Shown here: positions 4,889-34,898 of the stretch, in pieces | Numbering within the stretch: position 1 is the first letter of the stretch | Layout of the letters: each line of letters opens with the position of its first letter | DNA from: Planctomycetota bacterium | GTDB lineage: Bacteria > Planctomycetota > PLA2 > JAEUHO01 | Direction of reading: 5' to 3' | NCBI GenBank assembly: GCA_965223505.1 | Contig: CBDCWP010000017.1 | Location: forward strand, 1-59,823 | DNA length: 59,823 nucleotides | Notes under the pieces: model-generated | Databases searched by the model: none | Told to the model about the DNA's origin: nothing | The model's input: the letters and a program-made list of their open reading frames with translations, nothing else | Made by a program: the position numbers and the translations under genes

Positions 4889-4922
4889 CTCGCGTGTCGT
4901 GCTCGTGAACGTGCACGACACC
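4889..4922 (+). repeat. Short copy of the palindrome family (CTCGC-GTGTCGTG-12 nt-CACGACAC), preceded by CCCGCT-type hexamer repeats
   Basis: GTGTCGTG at 4894-4901 and CACGACAC at 4914-4921, between convergent genes; cccgctcccgatccggctcccgctcccg at about 4841-4868. Confidence 0.75.
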
Positions 4923-10698: not shown

Positions 10699-11871
10699 TT
10701 AGTCCTTCTTCTTCGCTCTTGCCCTTTTGATCATCATGGTCCGTTTGGCCTTCTCCTTGTTGGAGATGCCGGCCTCGTTCGGGTCCGGCAGGCCCGCCGC
10801 GGGATCGGCGTCCTCCGCCGGCGCGGCGGCGGCGGGTGCGGCAGCGGCCTTCGCCCGCGCGCGCTTGATCATCATCGTTCGCTTGGCCTTCTCCTTGTTG
10901 GAGATGCCCGGCTCGTCCGGATCGGGCATGCCGGCTGCGGGGTCGGCCGGAGCGGCCGCGGGCGCTGCCGCGGCGCCCTTCGCGCGGGCGCGCTTGATCA
11001 TCATCGTGCGCTTGGCCTTCTCCTTGTTGGAGATGCCCGGCTCGTTCGGATCGGGCAGGCCCGCCGCGGGATCGGCGGCGGGAGCCGCCGCGGCGCCCTT
11101 GGCGCGAGCACGCTTGATCATCATCGTGCGCTTGGCCTTCTCCTTGTTGGAGATGCCCGGCTCGTTCGGATCGGGCATGCCTGCCGCAGGATCGGCCGCG
11201 GCCGGAGCCGCCGCACCGCTCTTGATCGCGCGCATGCGCATGACCGTGCGACGCGCCTTCTCCTTGTTGGAGATGCCGGGCTCGTCCGGGTCGGGCATCC
11301 CGGCGACGGCGGCCGAGGCGCCGGACTTGGCCTTGCGCGCCGCTTCCTTGGCCGCCTTCTCCTTGGCGAGGCGGTCCATGCGGGTCTTCTTCACCGCAGC
11401 GATCTCGTCCGCGTAGGCCTTGGCCTCGCGCGCCTGCGCCTCCTCCGCGAGCGGCCGCAACTCGTCGAGCACGGCCAGCTTCTCGGCGCGGATCGACTGC
11501 AACATCGTGCGCGCCAGGCCCATGTTGGCGGGCAGGTCCGCCAACGCGTTCTCGTAACGCACGACGTCGTCCTCGAGCGCCCCGATCACGAATCCGGCGA
11601 GGTACGGAACCGTCAGGTAGTTGAGGTCGCGGTGCCAGTACGGGAACGCGCCCGGCTCGGGAACGCGATCCAGCGACTCGATGATCTGCGCCAGCATGCG
11701 CGCGTGGCTGCGCTCTTGCCGTCGCGCGTCACGCAGCGAGGTCAGCACGTCCTGATCGCCGTCCGTGACGTACGGCTGCGACTCGAAGACGTACCCGGTC
11801 GCGCTGTAGTACGAACGCGTGAACAGGTCGTTCAGCTTGCCAACCAGGTCGGAAGAGACGGTGATCTGCAT
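10699..11871 (-). CDS. Ferritin-like N-terminal domain protein with five C-terminal Lys/Ala-rich repeats
   Basis: Helical N-terminal domain with ERSH (ExxH-like); five G(M/L)PDP(D/N)EPGISNKEKAKRTMMIKRARAK units. Starts 6 nt after the nuoN stop with a GGAGG RBS. Confidence 0.8.
   Translation of the reverse strand: MQITVSSDLVGKLNDLFTRSYYSATGYVFESQPYVTDGDQDVLTSLRDARRQERSHARMLAQIIESLDRVPEPGAFPYWHRDLNYLTVPYLAGFVIGALEDDVVRYENALADLPANMGLARTMLQSIRAEKLAVLDELRPLAEEAQAREAKAYADEIAAVKKTRMDRLAKEKAAKEAARKAKSGASAAVAGMPDPDEPGISNKEKARRTVMRMRAIKSGAAAPAAADPAAGMPDPNEPGISNKEKAKRTMMIKRARAKGAAAAPAADPAAGLPDPNEPGISNKEKAKRTMMIKRARAKGAAAAPAAAPADPAAGMPDPDEPGISNKEKAKRTMMIKRARAKAAAAPAAAAPAEDADPAAGLPDPNEAGISNKEKAKRTMMIKRARAKKKD
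10702..11304 (-). repeat. Intragenic tandem repeat, 5 units of about 120-138 bp
   Basis: ccttctccttgttggagatgcc core recurs five times at 120-138 bp spacing. Confidence 0.95.
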
Positions 11872-23783: not shown

Positions 23784-23847
23784 CCGCTAGGGTACGAACG
23801 AGGTCTCGGGGACGGGTACCATGCGCCCCCTCGATCGGGAGAACGTC

Positions 23848-25062
23848 ATGTCGATTCGGTTCGCGCTAACCATCACCGCCGTTGCGGCTCTGGCCGTGCT
23901 GCCGCTGCTGCCCGCAGCGGGCGTCTTCGCGGCCCCGCCGCAGGTGCCGGGCGTGCGGCTCATCGAGGCCTGGCCGGACCGGGAGTTTCCGGAGCCGGTG
24001 GACATCGCCCATCACGGCACCGAGCGCATGTACGTCGTCAGCCAGCCGGGCCGGATCCGGGCGGTCATGAAGTGGCGCGGCGTCGGCCAGGCGGATCGGC
24101 CGAAGATGTTCCTCGACATCAAGTCGCGGGTCGCCGCCATTCAGCAAGGCGGACTCTTGTCCTTGGCGTTCCACCCACGCTTCGATCAGAACCGCAAGTT
24201 CTACGTTTGCTATCTGGCGAAGCACGCCGACCCGCAGCTGAAGTTCAAGCTGGTGGTCTCGGAGTTCACGGCGACCGGCGGCTCGGTGGACGCGTGCGTG
24301 GGCGACCCCAACACCGAGCGCAAGCTGCTCGAGATGCCGAAGAGGCTCCCGGTCCACCAGGGCGGCGATCTGGAATTCGGCCCGCGCGGGAAGCTGTTCG
24401 TATCGACCGGCGACGGCGGGATCGAGAAGGAAGGCAAGTCACAGGACATTCGGGGTTGGTTCGGCAAGATCCTGCGTATCGACGTCGACGCGCGCTCTGC
24501 GGGCAAGGCGTACGGCATCCCGTCGGACAACCCGTGGCCGAACATTCCGAACCAGGTCTTGCCGGAGCTGTACGCGTACGGTTTCCGCAACCCCTGGCGT
24601 ATGTCGTTCGACGCGCAGGGCCGTCTGTGGACGACGGAGCCGGGCACGAAGGGTCCGGACTCGCGCGAGTGGGTGATGCTGGTGCAGCGGGCGGGCAACC
24701 ACGGTTGGCCGTACTACGAGGGCAAGCGCAGGCTGCGCAACCCGCCGGCGAGCGTGAAGCTGGTGCCGCCGGTCTTCGAGTACGTGCGCGGCGCCGGGAC
24801 GGGTGGAACGGCGGGCATCGGTGGGTTCGTGTACCGCGGATCGCGTGTGCCGAGCTTGCGGGGCAAGTACGTGTTCGGCGACTACATGCGCGGCGAGGTG
24901 TACTGCATCGACCTCGCCGGCGCGGGCCAGGGCGTGACGGGCCGCAACTGGCGGAAGATCGGCGACGTGGACACGCTGTCCTCGATCGGCGAGGACGCGC
25001 AAGGCGAGCTCTACTTCTGCTCGAACGACGGTGGATTCATCTTCATGATGGCGCCCGAGTAG
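23848..25062 (+). CDS. PQQ-dependent sugar dehydrogenase family protein, copy 2 (tandem paralog)
   Basis: GLLSLAFHP, HQGGDLEFGP, GKILRIDVD, GFRNPWRMSFD and NHGWPYYEG motifs; GGGAG RBS before ATG 23848. Confidence 0.9.
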   Translation: MSIRFALTITAVAALAVLPLLPAAGVFAAPPQVPGVRLIEAWPDREFPEPVDIAHHGTERMYVVSQPGRIRAVMKWRGVGQADRPKMFLDIKSRVAAIQQGGLLSLAFHPRFDQNRKFYVCYLAKHADPQLKFKLVVSEFTATGGSVDACVGDPNTERKLLEMPKRLPVHQGGDLEFGPRGKLFVSTGDGGIEKEGKSQDIRGWFGKILRIDVDARSAGKAYGIPSDNPWPNIPNQVLPELYAYGFRNPWRMSFDAQGRLWTTEPGTKGPDSREWVMLVQRAGNHGWPYYEGKRRLRNPPASVKLVPPVFEYVRGAGTGGTAGIGGFVYRGSRVPSLRGKYVFGDYMRGEVYCIDLAGAGQGVTGRNWRKIGDVDTLSSIGEDAQGELYFCSNDGGFIFMMAPE

Positions 25063-25135
25063 GCCGGGAACGTCGACTGCGAGCGTCGTTGACTGCGAGG
25101 GTGATTCTCGCGGCTGACCGCGAACTGAGACCTGC

Positions 25136-25173
25136 GTGTCGTGGTCGATACCGTGCCCGTGACCGTGCGCGTG
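25136..25173 (+). repeat. Left 38-bp inverted repeat upstream of the four-helix-bundle gene
   Basis: GTGTCGTGGTCGATACCGTGCCCGTGACCGTGCGCGTG matches the reverse complement of 25933-25970 at 34/38 positions. Confidence 0.85.
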
Positions 25174-25344
25174 GGCTCTCGAGCCGCTGTTCGCCGCCCG
25201 CGTGAGCCGTTGCCTGAGTTCGACGGTTCGGAGCGCTGCGTGACCGTCGCCTGTCGTCGCGCGAAGACCTGATCTCAGACGGGCGCCAAGATCGCCCGCC
25301 ATGCGTGTGAGGGCGATCGGCGCCCTCGCCACCGGAGATCATCC

Positions 25345-25722
25345 ATGAACGATCTACCTGCCGGCGGATTCGCGCATCTGCGCCTTGACGCCTACCACAT
25401 CGCGCAAGATCTTGCGACTGAGTGCGTGCAGCGCACGAAGGACATCCCGCGCGGCTTCGCCGAGGTGCGTTGTCAGGCACAGCGAAGCGCGTTGGCAACG
25501 GTCCGGCACATTGCCGAGGGCGCCGAACGCGAAACGCCCGCGGACAAGTCCGCGCGCTTCATCCTCGCACGTAGCGAGGTAGCCGAGCTTGACGCGACCC
25601 TCGATACTGCGATTCGGCTCGCTCTCGTCCCACCCGAGCAAGGCGACGAACTCCGCGCCCTCGCCTCACGGGTCGGAGCAATGTTGAACGGTCTCATCCG
25701 CAGACAGCGGTCTTTGCAGTAG
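25345..25722 (+). CDS. Four helix bundle protein (23S rRNA IVP / Avd-like superfamily)
   Basis: F.H.RLDAY..A, P.G, Q..RSA....HIAEG..R, F..AR....E and V.AML.GL pattern; 125 aa; GGAG RBS. Confidence 0.85.
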   Translation: MNDLPAGGFAHLRLDAYHIAQDLATECVQRTKDIPRGFAEVRCQAQRSALATVRHIAEGAERETPADKSARFILARSEVAELDATLDTAIRLALVPPEQGDELRALASRVGAMLNGLIRRQRSLQ

Positions 25723-25758
25723 CCAGGAGCACTTCTGCCGCGCGCGAAAGGTGCCGAC

Positions 25759-26462
25759 AGTCGGACGGCCGACAATGCGTGTGCCTCCTCGCGTGTCGAG
25801 CACGTGCCCGCTCTCGGTCTCGTGCCCGTGGTTCGCCGCGTCAGCCACACTTCCCTCGCCTGCCGGGTGAATCCATGAACCGGGCGGGAGGGCGCATTCC
25901 TCTGATACGAAGGCCTTGCGGAGATCAGAACACACGGGAACGGTCACGGGCACGGTATCGGGCACGACACCAAGATGAGAGTCGGACGACCGACAATGCG
26001 TGTGCCTCCTCGCGTGTCGTGCACGTGCCCGCTCTCGGTCTCGCGCCCGTGGTTCGCCGCGTCAGCCACACTTCCCGCGCCTGCCGGGTGACTCCATGAG
26101 CCGGGCGGGAGGGCGCACTCCTCTGATACGAAGGCCTTGCGGAGATCAGGACACACGGGAACGGTCACGGGCACGGTATCGGGCACGACACCAAGATGAG
26201 AGTCGGACGACCGACAATGCGTGTGCCTCCTCGCGTGTCGTGCACGTGCCCGCTCTCGGTCTCGCGCCCGTGGTTCGCCGCGTCAGCCACACTTCCCGCG
26301 CCTGCCGGGTGAATCCATGAACCGGGCGGGAGGGCGCACTCCTCTGGATACGAAGGCCTTGCGGAGATCAGGACACACGGGAACGGTCACGGGCACGGTA
26401 TCGGGCACGACACCAAGATGAGAGTCGGACGACCGACAATGCGCGTGCCCGCTCGCGTGTCG
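25759..26462 (+). repeat. Tandem array of about 3.2 copies of a 221-bp structured non-coding unit
   Basis: agtcggac(g)(a/g)ccgacaatgcg recurs at 25759, 25980, 26201 and 26423 (period 221, 221, 222); units nearly identical. Confidence 0.97.
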
Positions 26463-26538
26463 CCGCATCTCCAGCAGAGGGAGCTCACGCTCCATCGCAC
26501 GCTCGGTTTCCCGCGCCCTGTCCGGTCGTCGCCTCGCC

Positions 26539-27510
26539 CTACTCGATGCCCTCTTCCGCCAACCAGCGCTCCGCGTCCAATGCACCCATGCATCCCGACC
26601 CGGCAGCCGTGATCGCCTGACGATAGACCTTGTCGGACACATCCCCCACCGCGAACACGCCGGGGATCTTCGTCTTCGACGTGCCCGGCTCGAACGGGAT
26701 GATGTAGCCCGACTCGTCCGTGTCGATCTGCCCGTCCAGGAACTTCGTGTTCGGCTCGTGGCCGATCGCGATGAAGAGCCCCTTGCACTCGAGGTTGCTC
26801 TTCTCGTTCGTCTGCGTGTCCGTCAGCTCGACGCCCGTGATGACCTCGTCGCCGTGCACGTCCGTGACGATCTTGTTCCAAGCCATCTCGACCTTCGGGT
26901 TGTTCAGCAGCCGGTCCTGCATGATCTTGCTCGCGCGCAGCTCGTCGCGCCGGTGCACCACCGTCACCTTCGACGCGAACTTGGTGAGGAACGTCGCTTC
27001 CTCGACCGCGGTGTCGCCACCGCCCACCACGACCAGATGCTGATCGCGGAACACGGGCAACGCCCCGTCACAGACGGCGCACGCGGACACGCCGCCGCCC
27101 GACTGCGCGAGCTTCTGCTCGTTGTCGAGCCAAAGCCACTTGGCCTTCGCGCCCGTCGCGATGATCGCGGCGTGGGTCTTGACCTCGTTGCCCTCGAGCG
27201 TGTGGAGCACGAACGGACGTTGTGAGAAGTCGCACTTCACGATGTCGTCCGTGATGACGCGCGTACCGAACCGCTCGGCCTGCTTCTTGAAGTCGGCCAT
27301 CATTTCCTGGCCGGTCACGCCTTCCGGGTAACCCGGGTAGTTCTCTACGTCGGTCGTGAACATCAGCTGACCACCGGGGATCATCTGCTGCGTGGGGGCG
27401 CCCTCGTAGACGAGAGGATCCAGGTCGGCGCGTGCCGCGTAGAGCGCCGCCGTCCAGCCCGCAGGGCCGGAACCGATGATCACCAGCTTCTCGACTCCGT
27501 TCTCGCTCAT
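26539..27510 (-). CDS. trxB: Thioredoxin-disulfide reductase
   Basis: [30 protein letters not shown] and [11 protein letters not shown] motifs; start ATG 27510. Confidence 0.97.
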
Positions 27511-27607
27511 GGATCTGCTCCCTCGAGGTGCGTTGGATCGGGATGCTACTCGCGCGGCGGCGCTTGTCATTCCCCAGACGGGCGTCGCGCGTCCCGGGTT
27601 GCGCGAA

Positions 27608-28216
27608 TCAGCCTTCGACGCGCCCGGCCGAGAGCCAGCGGAACGCGGCGAGGCACGTCCCGACCACGGCGATGCCCTGCAGGATCGACCGCTCCGCGTT
27701 CGCGTGGGCGTCGTCCTCGTCATCCGCCTCGCCGAGGAGGTCCGGCTCGGCCAGGTAGGTCGCCACGACGGGCCACGCCGCGTCGAACAGCGCGTACGCC
27801 TGCTCGCCGCGCGCGTCGAGCGCGACGTCCTCGCCGGCGAGGTACTCCTCGAGCGGACCGAGGACCTCGGCGGCGAGAGACTCGAAATACGCCTCCTCAC
27901 CGTCGTCCGGCTCTTCGACCAGGCGGGCCAGGGTCTCCGGCGGATCGGCGTCTTCGATGCCGGACGCCGCCAACACCGCGAGACTGCCGAGGTGCGCGAA
28001 GCGGAAGACGCGCTCGGCACGTTCGATGATCTCCGCAGCGGACTCGAGGTCGTCCGCGGCTTCGTCAGGCGCGACACCCTCGACGTTCGCGACCATCGCG
28101 GGCGCGTCGGCACACAGGCCGGCCCAGTGAAAACAGCCGGGGAACCAGTCCAGGAACCCGTCGCCGTAGGTTCCCATCGCCTCTTCGACGAAGTGGCGGA
28201 GCGCGTCCGTCGACAT
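27608..28216 (-). CDS. Hypothetical acidic helical protein
   Basis: 202-aa ORF with genome-typical codon use between the IscA-like gene and trxB; no family recognised. Confidence 0.65.
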
Positions 28217-28225
28217 GCGATGTCG

Positions 28226-28561
28226 CTACGCGGAGAACGAGCTGCCGCAGCCGCAGCTGCCGGTGGCGTTCGGGTTCTTGAACTCGAACCCCGATCCCAT
28301 CATCGACTCGGTGTAGTGGATCTGCGTGCCGCCCACGAACAGCGCGGACTTGGGGTCGACGTAGACCTCGAAGCCGTCGTAGGCGGTGATCACCTGGTCC
28401 TTCTCGTCCGGCCCGCGCTCCAGGGCGAGCTGGTAGCTCATGCCGGAGCAGCCGCCGCCGACGACCTTGACGCGCAGCCCCTTCGCCTCGCTCTGGGCCG
28501 GGTCGGCCATCAGCTCGCGGACCTTCTTCTCGGCCTCGGGTGTCAGGGTGACGGCAGTCAT
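28226..28561 (-). CDS. Iron-sulfur cluster assembly accessory protein (HesB/IscA/ErpA family)
   Basis: GGGCSG and [14 protein letters not shown] motifs. Confidence 0.95.
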
Positions 28562-28652
28562 GTCGGGCTCCTCGTGGAACTTTCCTCATTATAGGTTCCA
28601 CTGCGGCCCGACCGCCCATTTCCGCACCGGACGTCGATAAGATGCTCGTCCC

Positions 28653-30998
28653 ATGCGACCGATTCTGCCTCTCCTGATCGTCGTGACAGCGCTGGCGCTG
28701 TTCGGCTACGCCTGGATGAAGAGCGGCCCGCGGGAGGACGACGGCGCCGGCAACGGCGCGGACGCGCCCGACGCGCGCGGCACGTACCTGACCGACGAGC
28801 AGCGCGTTCGGCTCTTCGACCTCGAGCGCGCCGATCTGCTCCTGGGCCGCGCGCTGAAGCCCTGGACCGAGGCGATTCGGGCCAAGGACCGCGAGCGCAT
28901 CGGCGCAGCCCTGGCGTCGTCGTTCGAAGGGCGCTGTCCGATCGTGCCGAGCGGCGTGGAACGTCGCGCCGGCGGCGGGCTCGTTTTCGGACATGCGCGA
29001 CTCGAAGGCGCCGACGCGAAGACCGCAGAGACGTTCCTTGCGTGGATCATGGATCTGACGTCGAGGTTCGACCGCATCGACGCCGTGAAGTTCGGCCGGC
29101 GCTACAACAGTGTCGAGATCCTGGAGGGGCCGCAGGGCCGCGCCGAGAGCACCGGCACATGGCGGGTCGCGGGCGTGCGCGACGGCAGCGCACCGCTCGA
29201 GGTGTCGGGCAAGTTCCGTCTCCGGCACCGCGGCATGTCCCCGGACGCGCCGGTAGAGAATCCATGGATCTTCGGCCTGGAGCTCTTCGACGTCTCGGTG
29301 GTTCATGCCGAGCGCCCGCTCTTCCGGGAGATCACCGCGGACACCGGCATCGACGTCGACGGGCTGCATGACAACTGGCGGCCGGAGCATCTCGAGAAGT
29401 CCTTCCAGATCTTGACGGGCGGCATCTACCTGGGCGATGTGAACGGTGACGACCATCTCGACGCGCTCGTCACGGACGTGCACAGGACATGGCTCTACAT
29501 CGGCAAGGGCGACGGGAGCTTCGTGGACAGCGGTTGGAACCCGAAGGTGCCGGAACGGGTCTACGCGGCGCTCTTCGACGCGACGGGTGACGGACGGGTC
29601 GACGTGCTGCTCGACGGCCTGCTGTACGAATTCGACCCTCGGCAGGGCAAGCCCGTGCCGATCGAAGGCGCGACGCGCATGCCGAACGGCGACGCGAGCT
29701 TGTGTGACTACGACCGCGACGGACTCGTCGACGTGTACTTCCGCGACAGCGGGCGGTTCTACCCCGGCGACCAGCCTCGGGCGTTCTTCGACAACGACCG
29801 CATCGCGGGGCGCGAGAACCTGCTCTTCCGCAACCTGGGCGGCGGCAAGTTCGAGGACGTCACCGCCCTCGCGAAAGCCTCCGGAGGCTTCGGACGGACG
29901 TTCGCGACGACCTGGTTCTACGCCGACGGCGACGAGTGGCCCGACGTGTTCTGCGCGAACGAGTTCGGACGCAACGCGTTGCTGATCAACAACGGCGACG
30001 GCACCTTCGACGACGGGCCCGAGATCGACGCCCAGTTCGGCGGATTCTCGATGGGCGTCACCGCCGGAGATCTCGACGACGATGGGGTCACCGACCTCTA
30101 CGTGTCGAACATGTACTCCAAGGCGGGGCACCGTGTGTATCACCACCTCGACCTCGACGCGTACCCGCCGAACGTGCGGCGGATGTTCATGGCCTCGATC
30201 AAGGGCAACAAGTACTACCGCGGAAGGACGGGCACGGCGTTCGACGACTGGAGCTTCGACGCGGGCGTGAACGAGGTCGGCTGGGGTTGGTCCGGCGCGA
30301 TGGCCGACTTCGACCTGAACGGCCGGCTCGACATCTACGCACCGTGCGGACACTCGTCGGCGGACAAATCGAAGCCGGACGGGTGAGGCTGTGTCTGGCA
30401 GGCTGTGGCTGCGCAGCCGTTCAACACCTCCAAGAGACACTCGGCGCCGCGCGACCCCGACGAGCGGGTCAACGAGTTCTGGCTCGAGAACCCGTTCGAC
30501 TTCGAGCGCCGCAAGGGCTTCAACCTCTCGATGTACGAGCGCAACCGGATGTTCCTCAACATGGACGGGCGCAGTTTCGCGGAAGCGTCGCACGTCAGCG
30601 CAACGGACATCGATGCCGACTCGCGCGCGGTCGCCGTCGGCGACCTCAACGAGGACGGACGTCCGGACTTGATCGTGCGGTCGGTGGGTGGCGGCGTGTT
30701 GCGGGTGTACCTCAATCAGATTCCCGCGCGCGCGTCGGTACGGGTCACGTTGCGAGGCAGGCGCTCGAACAGCGCCGGGATCGGCGCGCGGATGGTGATG
30801 GACCTGGGCGGCCGCAAGCTGCATCGGGACCACTTTCCGCAGAACAGCCTCATGGCGCAGACGGCGACGGAGACGATCTTCGGGCTCGGGGACTACGACG
30901 GACCCATGACGCTGACGATCACGTGGCCGTCGGGCGCGGTGCAGGTCGTCGAGAACGTCAAGCCGGGGCGACATGTGATCGAAGAACCGGACGCATAG
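28653..30998 (+). CDS. FG-GAP/VCBS-repeat + ASPIC/UnbV (CRTAC1-like) protein with an in-frame TGA at 30384-30386; candidate selenoprotein, alternatively two genes or a pseudogene
   Basis: ORFs 28653-30386 and 30405-30998 are in the same frame. DxDxDG repeats occur on both sides of the TGA; the C-terminus has SNSAGIGAR, FGLG and ITWPSG. Confidence 0.7.
30387..30418 (+). promoter_or_regulatory. Candidate bacterial SECIS hairpin
   Basis: GGCTGTG-GCTG-CGCAGCC (30401-30418) forms a 7-bp stem with a 4-nt loop starting with G; 21 nt lie between the TGA and the loop. Confidence 0.55.
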
Positions 30999-31070
30999 AT
31001 CGGGCCAGAGGACGACGGTGCGTTGAGGAGGCGGTGCGCGCCGATCACAGCCCCGACGTTCCCTCGGCCC

Positions 31071-31319
31071 CGCGTGTCGTGACCGTGCCCGTTGGCGTTC
31101 CCGTGACCGTCGTTCGCCGAGTCAGCCACGCTTCCCTCGTTTGCCGGGTGACTCCCGACGCCCGACGGGAGGACGCATTTCTCCGAAACGAGAGGCTTGT
31201 CGACGACCAGGACACACGGGCACGGGAACGGGCACGGTATCGGGCACGACACCAAGGTGAGCGTTGCACGGCCAGCGTTGCGCGTTCCTCATCGCGTGTC
31301 GTGCACGCCACCAGGTGAG
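31071..31319 (+). repeat. Diverged solo copy of the 221-bp unit (179-bp element + 43-bp linker + degenerate minimal palindrome)
   Basis: GTGTCGTG at 31074 to CACGACAC ending 31252; shared blocks gttcgccg.gtcagccac.cttccctcg, gccgggtga.tcc and gggcacggtatcgggcacgacaccaag; between convergent genes. Confidence 0.9.
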
Positions 31320-31341
31320 AGGCCGCCCTCCCGAACGGCGC

Positions 31342-32331
31342 TCAACGCTCCGACTCGCCGTCGATCCGTCGCGCATCCTCCATCAGGTTGATGTCGTACA
31401 GCACCTGATCCAACCAGTCGCCCGCCTGGATCGCGCCCTCGCGCTGCGGATGCTCCGCATCGATGCACGTCGGCAACGGAACCAGAATCGTCCGCGGCGT
31501 GGGGTGGCAGAACTGGACGACCGAAAATCGCTCCTCCGTCTGCGCCGGGTCCGCGACGACCCGATGCGTACCCGCCGGGATCCGACCGTTCGACAAGAGC
31601 GCCAGCATCATGCCCGTGTTCAGGATCGCGGCGTTCTCCGGCGGCGCGGCATCGACGTACGCGCCTTCCACGCTCACCTGCAATCCGCGCGACGTCGCGC
31701 GCGGCAGTGCCGTGATGAGATTGATGTCGTCGTGCGCCTCGGCCCAGATGTGGCCGCCCTCCGGCGCCTCCCCCATCGGCGGATACCGAATCGCACGACA
31801 CAGCGTCGGCCCCTCCTTCAACATGCCGTCGAAGAACGAAGGATGCACTCCCAATCCCTCCGCGATGATGCGCAGGAAGCGCCGCTGAAGGTCGAGCAGC
31901 CGGTCGTACAGCAACGTGAGCGCCGCGGCGATGCCCGGCACGTCGGGCTCCGGAAACACCCGCTCCATGTACCGGTGGGGAAAGGCACGCCGAAGCGGAT
32001 GGCCTTCGGGCAGCTCGATGCCCCAGTTGAGCATCTCTTTCCAATCCGGCCGGTCCGCGACGGCCGCCGCTTCGACCATCAACCCCGTGTACCCGGTCTG
32101 CCCCATGGAACCGGGCCGCACGTACGCCTCCTTCGTCGCCCTGGGAAGGTGGAAAAAGGCGGCGAGCATCTCGTACGCGTCGTCGATGACCCCCTGGGGG
32201 ACGTCATGCTGCGCGTAGACGAATCCCGTTTGCAGGCTGCGCATGACGCCGTCGACGACGCTCTTGCGCTGTGTACGGTCGCCGCGCTCGTAGCGCAGCA
32301 GATCGACGTCGAGAATGCGGGCGGACGTCAT
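31342..32331 (-). CDS. Isopenicillin N synthase family 2OG-Fe(II) oxygenase
   Basis: GFVY..H, RAIRYPP, HDD (HxD), NTG.ML..LSNG, THRV and RFSVVQF motifs. Confidence 0.9.
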   Translation of the reverse strand: MTSARILDVDLLRYERGDRTQRKSVVDGVMRSLQTGFVYAQHDVPQGVIDDAYEMLAAFFHLPRATKEAYVRPGSMGQTGYTGLMVEAAAVADRPDWKEMLNWGIELPEGHPLRRAFPHRYMERVFPEPDVPGIAAALTLLYDRLLDLQRRFLRIIAEGLGVHPSFFDGMLKEGPTLCRAIRYPPMGEAPEGGHIWAEAHDDINLITALPRATSRGLQVSVEGAYVDAAPPENAAILNTGMMLALLSNGRIPAGTHRVVADPAQTEERFSVVQFCHPTPRTILVPLPTCIDAEHPQREGAIQAGDWLDQVLYDINLMEDARRIDGESER

Positions 32332-34850: not shown

Positions 34851-34898
34851 TCCTCCTCGCGTGTCGTGCACGTTCTCGGTGTCGGCCACGACACCAAG
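34851..34898 (+). repeat. Short copy of the palindrome family (CCTCCTCGC-GTGTCGTG-18 nt-CACGACAC-CAAG)
   Basis: GTGTCGTG at 34861-34868 and CACGACAC at 34887-34894; flanks match the array linker ends. Confidence 0.85.

Follow-up and report, generated by a model that had tools for sequence, protein, structure and literature searches.

This study concerns a locus in a 59,823-nucleotide (nt) stretch of DNA, here called the window, from a Planctomycetota bacterium (assembly GCA_965223505.1, contig CBDCWP010000017.1). Between a glucose/sorbosone dehydrogenase gene (GSDH) and a thioredoxin reductase gene (trxB) lies a block of 1.48 kb (25063-26538) that carries a gene for a 125-amino-acid (aa) four-helix-bundle protein of the 23S_rRNA_IVP/Avd type, hereafter the IVP gene. 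In order, the block comprises a 5' arm, a leader hairpin in which the ribosome-binding site is concealed, the IVP gene, and three hairpin units in tandem, each with a 3' arm. We interpret it, with a probability of roughly one-half, as a cassette of the kind known from rRNA intervening sequences (IVSs) that stands outside any rRNA gene.

Results

The features of the block are the following.

25136-25179, + strand: gene-side (5') arm, hexamer-periodic (NCCGTG-type), starting GTGTCGTG; 38/44 complementary to 25927-25970
25271-25340, + strand: leader hairpin of ~70 nt, GATCTC...GGGCGCC...GGCGCCC...GAGATC, recognized by reading the sequence; Shine-Dalgarno (SD) sequence paired in the minimum-energy fold; matched by covariance model R1
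25345-25722, + strand: gene for the 125-aa four-helix-bundle protein (23S_rRNA_IVP / TIGR02436 / Avd-like); matches to PF05635, TIGR02436, 2gsc, and phrog_3206; GC content at third codon positions (GC3) 0.72
25756-26462, no strand: tandem array, 3.2 units of 221 nt; 97% matches; units differ at 3-9 positions (96-99% identical); no coding signal
25793-25970, no strand: hairpin unit 1; fold -73.0 kcal/mol; 3' arm 25927-25970
26014-26191, no strand: hairpin unit 2; fold -78.2 kcal/mol; 3' arm 26148-26191
26235-26413, no strand: hairpin unit 3; fold -76.0 kcal/mol; 3' arm 26370-26413, with the arm core at 26388-26413 at 0 mismatches

The arms that enclose the gene (25136-25179 and 25927-25970) are 44 nt long, 86% complementary (38/44), and 747 nt apart. 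The initial annotation, made from the letters of the sequence, had described a gene held within a long inverted repeat with a 38-nt core; its 34/38 complementarity is confirmed, the repeat extends to 38/44, and the gene lies in the loop of a predicted hairpin, yet that description was incomplete in that it missed the 221-nt tandem array and the leader hairpin. A 26-nt core of the arm, allowing up to 3 mismatches, occurs five times in the window and not at all in 100 dinucleotide shuffles. Every unit of the array is itself a hairpin of 178-179 nt, GTGTCGTG...CACGACAC, and because a 3' arm ends each 221-nt unit, the gene-side arm has three equivalent partners. Folded as RNA, 25120-25990 gives a minimum-energy structure in which the gene-side arm pairs with the first 3' arm and the gene occupies the loop; the centroid structure is closed in this way too, and none of 20 shuffles folds as well (z -3.45). 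Six open reading frames (ORFs) in and around the array have neither a Pfam match nor a GC3 bias (GC3 of 0.61-0.73 for those within it), and the array is therefore noncoding.

We also considered the units as deletion derivatives of the gene copy. Clear homology is confined to the arm plus ~30 nt (GTTCGCCGC...), and CCCTCGCC..ATCCATGAAC resembles the start-codon region (match D4, 75% over 28 nt) in competition with a match inside the ORF (D6), so the units are at most candidate deletion derivatives.

A different view of the same anatomy is that gene and repeats are chance neighbors: REP-like terminator or mRNA-stabilizer repeats would have collected in the convergent spacer, an unrelated acquired IVP gene would have landed beside them, and the left arm would be an orphan half-repeat. 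We find this doubtful in light of the pairing energies: none of the three 3' arms has a better partner than the gene-side arm, which forms a duplex of about -73 kcal/mol with each, whereas the units' own 5' arms reach -44 to -48 kcal/mol and shuffled partners have a mean of -29 kcal/mol. Inverted 44-nt arms flanking a gene are also what an invertible DNA switch would have, with recombination between the arms flipping the gene segment. Such a switch is very improbable here: there is no recombinase gene in the window, and contigs from four public DNA runs of one study show the window orientation only, with no strand-changing joint listed and neither an empty-site nor an inverted form seen among them. 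One of these contigs is unbroken across 24600-25853 and confirms the left junction; the tandem array is split into short contigs.

Sequence comparisons clearly place the predicted 125-aa protein in the IVP/Avd fold family. PF05635 matches it at 55.9 bits (cut-off 33.8; E 5.5e-15; profile positions 3-106 of 106) and TIGR02436 at 52.1 bits (cut-off 24), which bears out the family claim for which the initial annotation had recommended a hidden Markov model search. Among the PHROGs it matches phrog_3206, "Avd protein of DGR" (diversity-generating retroelement), with an E of 3.8e-6, and PADLOC gave no defense-system match. A profile of 14 family members matches PDB entries 2gsc (XCC0516 of Xanthomonas campestris; E 2.7e-13) and 2rld (E 2.3e-4), relatives compared by sequence alone, each with five chains per entry; XCC0516 is described in PMC4990558 as a homopentameric toroid of four-helix bundles. 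The GC3 of the ORF, 0.72 against 0.89-0.97 in six neighboring genes, agrees with the earlier impression that it has more A/T-ending codons than its surroundings.

The SD sequence, GGAG at 25334-25337, lies within the 3' strand of the leader hairpin, 7 nt before the ATG. The core of the leader also precedes related genes in other Planctomycetota genomes, where the outer pairing differs (CCTCCAGG/CCTGGAGG or GACTCCT/AGGAGTC), and in minimum-energy folds the SD sequence is paired in 14 of 14 leaders. Covariation was counted on a MAFFT alignment made without reference to the structure, with the structure taken from one of the sequences and the sequences mutually related; on this basis, 76.8% of the cells pair, compared with 69.4% in shuffles, and 12 of 29 pairs show two-sided changes, a count reached by 8 of 500 shuffles. 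The covariation score is 0.209, compared with 0.106 for shuffled alignments (0/500 reach 0.209), and at most 0.156 when the partner is slid by 1-3 columns.

We searched for this leader with covariance model R1 in a comparison set of 41 related genomes, labeled from G000, the window's own genome, upward (C-numbers denote contigs). In G000 the model finds a single site, 25266-25347 of the window (41.6 bits, E 2.7e-8); it finds 6 sites in G003, 21 in G026, and none in the other 38 genomes. In G026, a PF05635 match follows immediately after 18 of the 21 sites, and two of the sites are at contig ends. This distribution ties the leader, as a cis element, to the IVP gene family.

The block is flanked by two host genes.

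23821-25062, + strand: GSDH, left host gene, the second of a tandem pair; PF07995, E 2.3e-37; orthologues adjoin trxB in relatives
26539-27510, - strand: trxB, right host gene, convergent with GSDH; Pyr_redox_2, E 9.6e-51

These two genes are adjacent in many relatives, and the window's trxB is 73-90% identical to the trxB matches at the seven relatives' loci that hold one. The convergent spacer between them, 1,476 nt in the window, measures ~100 nt in both G012 and G001, ~55 nt in G009, and ~40 nt in G008, and in these four it contains a simple GC-rich hairpin only; these are the empty sites between the sugar dehydrogenase gene and trxB that had been proposed as a check. The spacer is 260 nt in G018 and 630 nt in G014, the latter with hexamer arrays and without an IVP gene. 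The region is rearranged in G003, and the contigs of G004, G017, and G022 stop 50-340 nt past the dehydrogenase gene. Because the spacer is short in relatives and the codon usage of the ORF is atypical, the block, an insertion relative to the related genomes, is an acquired cassette. As a separate observation on this spacer, ~105-nt tandem repeats directly follow the orthologous dehydrogenase gene of G022 (L037, contig C13) and run to the contig end (last 330 nt), which makes them another repeat insertion at this position.

The families found among the 55 scanned ORFs of the window are housekeeping only (nuo operon, purA, carA, trxB, and others). As the initial annotation had stated, no rRNA, reverse transcriptase (RT), transposase, or integrase came to light: no Pfam family of the last three was found among the 55 ORFs, and no Rfam family, rRNA included, reached its gathering score across the whole window. 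An Rfam search of 24900-31500 with E up to 1 gave nothing relevant.

The arm ends recur at gene-less palindromes in the window, as had been reported earlier, and three such sites lie outside the block.

31074-31252, no strand: solitary diverged gene-less hairpin unit, 80% identity, between two convergent genes; fold -89.8 kcal/mol
4894-4921, no strand: short palindrome with GTGTCGTG/CACGACAC ends, from motif search and fold
34861-34894, no strand: short palindrome with GTGTCGTG/CACGACAC ends, from motif search and fold

We then searched the window's own genome by BLAST, with the 221-nt unit as query, and by approximate matching of the arm core. Hairpins with the same arms and other interiors lie at C1:11169-11300 and C38:223928-224103, and single arms occur at C16, C18, and C30, those at C16:20000 and C18:1622 having no partner within 3 kb. 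A larger sister family in the same genome has CACGTG/ATCGTG hexamer arms ending GTGCACGACAC. In the 40 related genomes, the 221-nt unit gives two borderline matches only, of 34-47 nt (E ~9e-4). The arm repeats thus form a genome-wide, lineage-specific family with one gene-carrying copy.

Some observations favor chance neighbors. The arm type stands at ~11 other places without an IVP gene, some of them unpaired, so the gene may simply adjoin generic repeats. The four repeat sites of the window all lie just past a stop codon, three of them between convergent genes; short-period arrays are common, with 498 of at least 44 nt in the genome; and the G014 spacer shows that hexamer arrays can occupy this very position without the gene.

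The other IVP genes argue in the opposite direction. Within 350 nt of all six free-standing IVP genes of G000 (one truncated) lies an array that has a period of 6 or 7 nt and is at least 44 nt long, with a different motif at each gene, compared with 7% of random windows; because the random windows are mostly coding DNA, this 7% understates the intergenic rate and the contrast is overstated. The length threshold was adopted after a stricter detector had found arrays at 0/6 intact genes and a laxer one in 56% of random windows. A link between four-helix-bundle genes and repeats, as anticipated in the initial annotation, is therefore supported for short-period arrays as a class, but its specific expectation that each gene would be flanked by this inverted repeat fails, as the other five genes carry different arrays. 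Moreover, the closest homologue of the window protein (54% identity, in G001, a different genus) is bracketed alike by units of its own, with four tandem 122-128-nt units upstream and two to three inverted units downstream, composed of (GCCGTK)n hexamers. The cassette layout therefore recurs independently in another genus, which also speaks against chance. Beyond this locus, the G001 unit has ~20 dispersed matches in its genome, where only 2 IVP genes occur.

The family as a whole is patchily distributed. PF05635-family matches occur in 13 of the 41 related genomes, at 0 to 20 per genome and often at contig ends. Of the 401 Planctomycetota genomes sampled, 7 encode a protein at an E of 1e-14 or better to the window protein, and all 7 belong to the order of the window's genome. 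A single-protein scan of public genome contigs and a two-sequence alignment scan of metagenome contigs each returned no close relatives; a scan of public collections with a 14-sequence alignment returned 26 loci, in Planctomycetota metagenome-assembled genomes (MAGs) and one Labilithrix MAG.

Discussion

Our findings lead us to propose the following course of events for the cassette. The + strand of the region would be transcribed, probably by read-through from the dehydrogenase genes, and the 5' arm would pair with one of the 3' arms to form an RNA stem of ~40 bp around the gene. G000 has an RNase III gene (rnc homologue, C39:290992-291357), and its product would cut this stem and free a small mRNA from the host transcript, as happens for ORF-bearing IVSs in pre-23S rRNA. 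The long leader hairpin might hold the gene untranslated until it is cut or opened. The leader might, in addition, be bound by the protein that the gene encodes, given that its pentameric relative Avd contacts an RNA stem-loop through all five subunits. The arms, finally, may have been drawn from, or have been the seed of, the lineage-specific hexamer-periodic hairpin repeat family.

The comparison that suggests this course of events is with the IVS in helix 45 of Coxiella burnetii. According to PMC4990558, that element has a 28-bp terminal stem with the S23p ORF in its loop and a variable number of tandem GACAGAT heptamers before the start codon, the first of which is the site of RNase III cleavage. 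The cassette likewise encodes a same-family protein in the loop of a terminal-inverted-repeat stem and has tandem repeats near the 5' stem or start codon (heptamers there, hexamers here), and this shared combination of stem and short tandem repeats again makes chance neighbors less plausible. The cassette and rRNA IVSs also have a sporadic distribution in common, and RNase III excision, demonstrated for IVSs, would be a further likeness. Unlike the Coxiella IVS, the cassette has its 3' arm triplicated in 221-nt units, an extra conserved leader hairpin over a good SD sequence, and arms that are shared with dispersed gene-less hairpins.

Unlike all rRNA IVSs, the cassette lies between convergent protein-coding genes and outside rRNA. 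IVP-type ORFs (23S_rRNA_IVP) have been recorded at several rRNA sites among the rRNA insertions of candidate phyla radiation bacteria (PMC11270868). The 23S rRNA gene of G000 lies elsewhere, at C34:218405-222063, and there is no PF05635 match on contig C34. That gene measures 3,659 nt against a model of 2,925 positions, and the difference is accounted for by a group I intron (RF00028, 53.9 bits; L138:2120-2793), not by an IVP-bearing IVS.

Several observations weigh against our proposal. Transcription of the region, the arm stem, its cleavage by RNase III, and binding of the protein to leader or arms are all steps that we infer. No RNA run with sequence from 24600-27000 was found. A scan of 24900-26700 gave 0 promoter-like and 0 terminator-like sites, a result that, coming from a sigma-70-specific scan, says little for this phylum. 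Reading of the arm mismatches yields one G-U wobble per strand and no strand-specific G-U signal. The authors of the Coxiella report doubt that S23p is produced (PMC4990558). The leader is not general: model R1 has no match in G001, the genome of the closest homologue, and the other IVP genes of G000 have a different upstream hairpin by which the SD sequence is not covered. No IVP gene stands beside the dispersed repeat copies, so that 1 of ~12 arm-type places in the genome has such a gene.

Inverted arms, moreover, are far from universal among IVP loci. We compared the upstream flank with the reverse complement of the downstream flank at 35 Planctomycetota loci, using flank pairs across genomes as controls, and the locus's own pair beat all cross-genome controls in 6 of 35 (6 of 23 in a first run). 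One of these six, L031, is an artifact of direct ACGT-containing arrays, which leaves 5/35, and L025, L030, and L026 are marginal. A 3' arm was detectable at none of the 18 tested loci assigned to three named MAG records, G003-like and G026-like cassettes with the same leader as the window included; most of these 18 carry an upstream array and the leader. By these comparisons, inverted arms in the IVP family are frequent but not obligatory, and they are not general in our sample.

The cassette might also be seen in relation to DGRs, whose Avd proteins share the fold family (phrog_3206). According to bioRxiv 10.1101/2023.10.23.563531, all five protomers of the Avd pentamer take part in binding an 11-bp RNA stem-loop, and the DGR template RNA is, like the window gene in its predicted stem, bracketed by a duplex of upstream and downstream sequences. 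Unlike a DGR, the window gene has no RT and no template or variable repeat nearby: none of the 55 window ORFs is an RT, and no template/variable-like repeat pair was found in 24800-26300, which speaks against DGR membership. An RT-linked member of the family occurs elsewhere in the genome, on contig C43 (G000:C43:22132-22431, L006), as a weak PF05635 match (24.4 bits) right after an ORF with a reverse-transcriptase-like YADD motif, and is a candidate DGR.

Avd also lends some plausibility to the idea put forward in the initial annotation, namely, that the window gene is the gene-carrying member of a hairpin element family whose protein binds or helps to spread the cognate repeats. In its developed form, a pentameric IVP would bind the hexamer arrays or the hairpins, in the form of RNA or single-stranded DNA, both beside its own gene and at the dispersed gene-less copies, and would control, protect, or propagate them in the manner of a RAYT (REP-associated tyrosine transposase; REP, repetitive extragenic palindrome). 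Related proteins do have related hexamers (NCCGTG here and GCCGTK at the closest homologue; the C44/C12/C39 clade has GGGNNN-type arrays), the relative Avd is a pentamer whose five protomers all grip the stem-loop, and dispersed hairpins are present in a genome in which no Y1/RAYT gene was found. Two G026 protein clades, each ~40% identical to the window protein, share one genome-specific repeat framework, however, which implies that the type of array depends there no less on the genome than on the protein, and the comparison within the protein's own clade comprises two members. We consider such a partnership distinctly unlikely as an account of this locus. Of the earlier idea, the fold family, the hairpin loop, the shared arms, the insertion, and the enrichment of arrays have all held up; that the repeat is genome-wide with the gene at a single arm place weighs against its strongest version.

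REPs and bacterial interspersed mosaic elements (BIMEs) with their RAYTs, and miniature inverted-repeat transposable elements (MITEs), are multicopy palindromic intergenic repeats found at gene 3' ends, sometimes in tandem. The repeats described here are like both groups in being palindromic and intergenic and in having gene-less copies related to a gene-carrying copy. In contrast to the REP/RAYT pairing, the only gene associated with the repeat encodes a small four-helix-bundle protein without known catalytic activity, and no match to the Y1/RAYT transposase (PF01797) was found in the 92%-complete genome, which speaks against a partner of the REP/BIME kind.

Terminal inverted repeats, multiple copies, and empty sites in four relatives are features that the locus has in common with MITEs. 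It might accordingly be a non-autonomous element at the DNA level, with the arms as terminal inverted repeats, the IVP gene as cargo, an enzyme encoded elsewhere, and the gene-less hairpins as deletion derivatives. Such an element would fit with a distribution that is patchy and multicopy, many of the copies being at contig ends, and with the presence in two genomes of scattered gene-less hairpins that share the arms. Three cassettes at 220-260 nt from a tRNA gene and the atypical codon usage of the ORF would suit it as well, as would the expansion of the array, which is recent because its units are 96-99% identical. Nevertheless, we judge this unlikely. None of the 55 window ORFs scanned matched a transposase, integrase, or RT family, and the genome yielded no Y1/RAYT transposase, Y1 being the only transposase class searched genome-wide; no direct repeat was recognized at the ends as a target-site duplication; cassettes of one genome differ markedly in their arms, which suits a single end-recognizing enzyme poorly; and the interiors of the gene-less hairpins are only weakly and ambiguously similar to the gene region.

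An IVS-type cassette outside rRNA remains the reading that we prefer, and it bears on a family whose role is obscure: to our knowledge, IVP-family proteins are very common and, outside DGRs, without known function. The function and origin of the rRNA-IVS proteins are themselves called unclear in PMC4990558. The locus offers a defined unit outside rRNA in which a stem-enclosed gene, a leader that can be found by a model and is tied to the family, and a linked family of gene-less hairpins come together. Such a cassette may explain the origin of some lineage-specific intergenic hairpin repeats. Our literature search, which left subscription journals and supplements outside its range, turned up no report of free-standing IVP genes that have periodic inverted arms.

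More speculatively, free-standing IVP genes, rRNA IVSs, and many lineage-specific short-period hairpin repeats could be parts of one system, in which an IVP pentamer recognizes its own arms and leader as RNA, regulates itself through the leader, and acts in trans on gene-less hairpins as non-autonomous derivatives. We regard this as a tentative and rather improbable extension of our results. If it were true, a whole class of intergenic repeats in bacteria would have IVP as its partner protein, in the way that REP elements have RAYT, and the family would have its first function.

Additional observations

Sites of the sister repeat family in G000 include C4:39680-40058, C7:88790-88934, C40:19133-19335, C43:7888-8006, and C8:32409-32497. 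Its members often lie beside hairpins of 24-30 nt, GGGCAGCC-ACAAGG-GCTGCCCC, some of which are tandem, and the empty GSDH/trxB spacer of G001 holds one such hairpin. Within the window itself, a tandem repeat with a period of 120 nt (10841-11304; 3.8 copies, 84% matches) lies inside a 390-aa minus-strand ORF (10699-11871) that has no Pfam match.

A second type of cassette is apparently present in G000, where near-identical IVP paralogues at C44:20816-21121 (L001) and C12:6886-7194 (L002) are seemingly two copies of it. They share both flanks, consisting of GGGATN-type arrays, a 20-21-nt perfect leader hairpin, and a downstream CTTGGCG-AGCCAAG hairpin, and the upstream module is triplicated on C12. 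The C12 cassette is also one of three IVP cassettes that lie 220-260 nt upstream of a convergent tRNA gene (L002:1165-1253, Leu; L031:2032-2116 in G014, Leu; L055:1568-1644 in a named MAG, His). In G014, a region of ~0.6 Mb (C7:2.27-2.85 Mb; L013, L022, L027, and L031) contains 18 IVP matches, each with a large leader palindrome, and the cluster is interleaved with long (GTGGAC)n and ACCCGN arrays.

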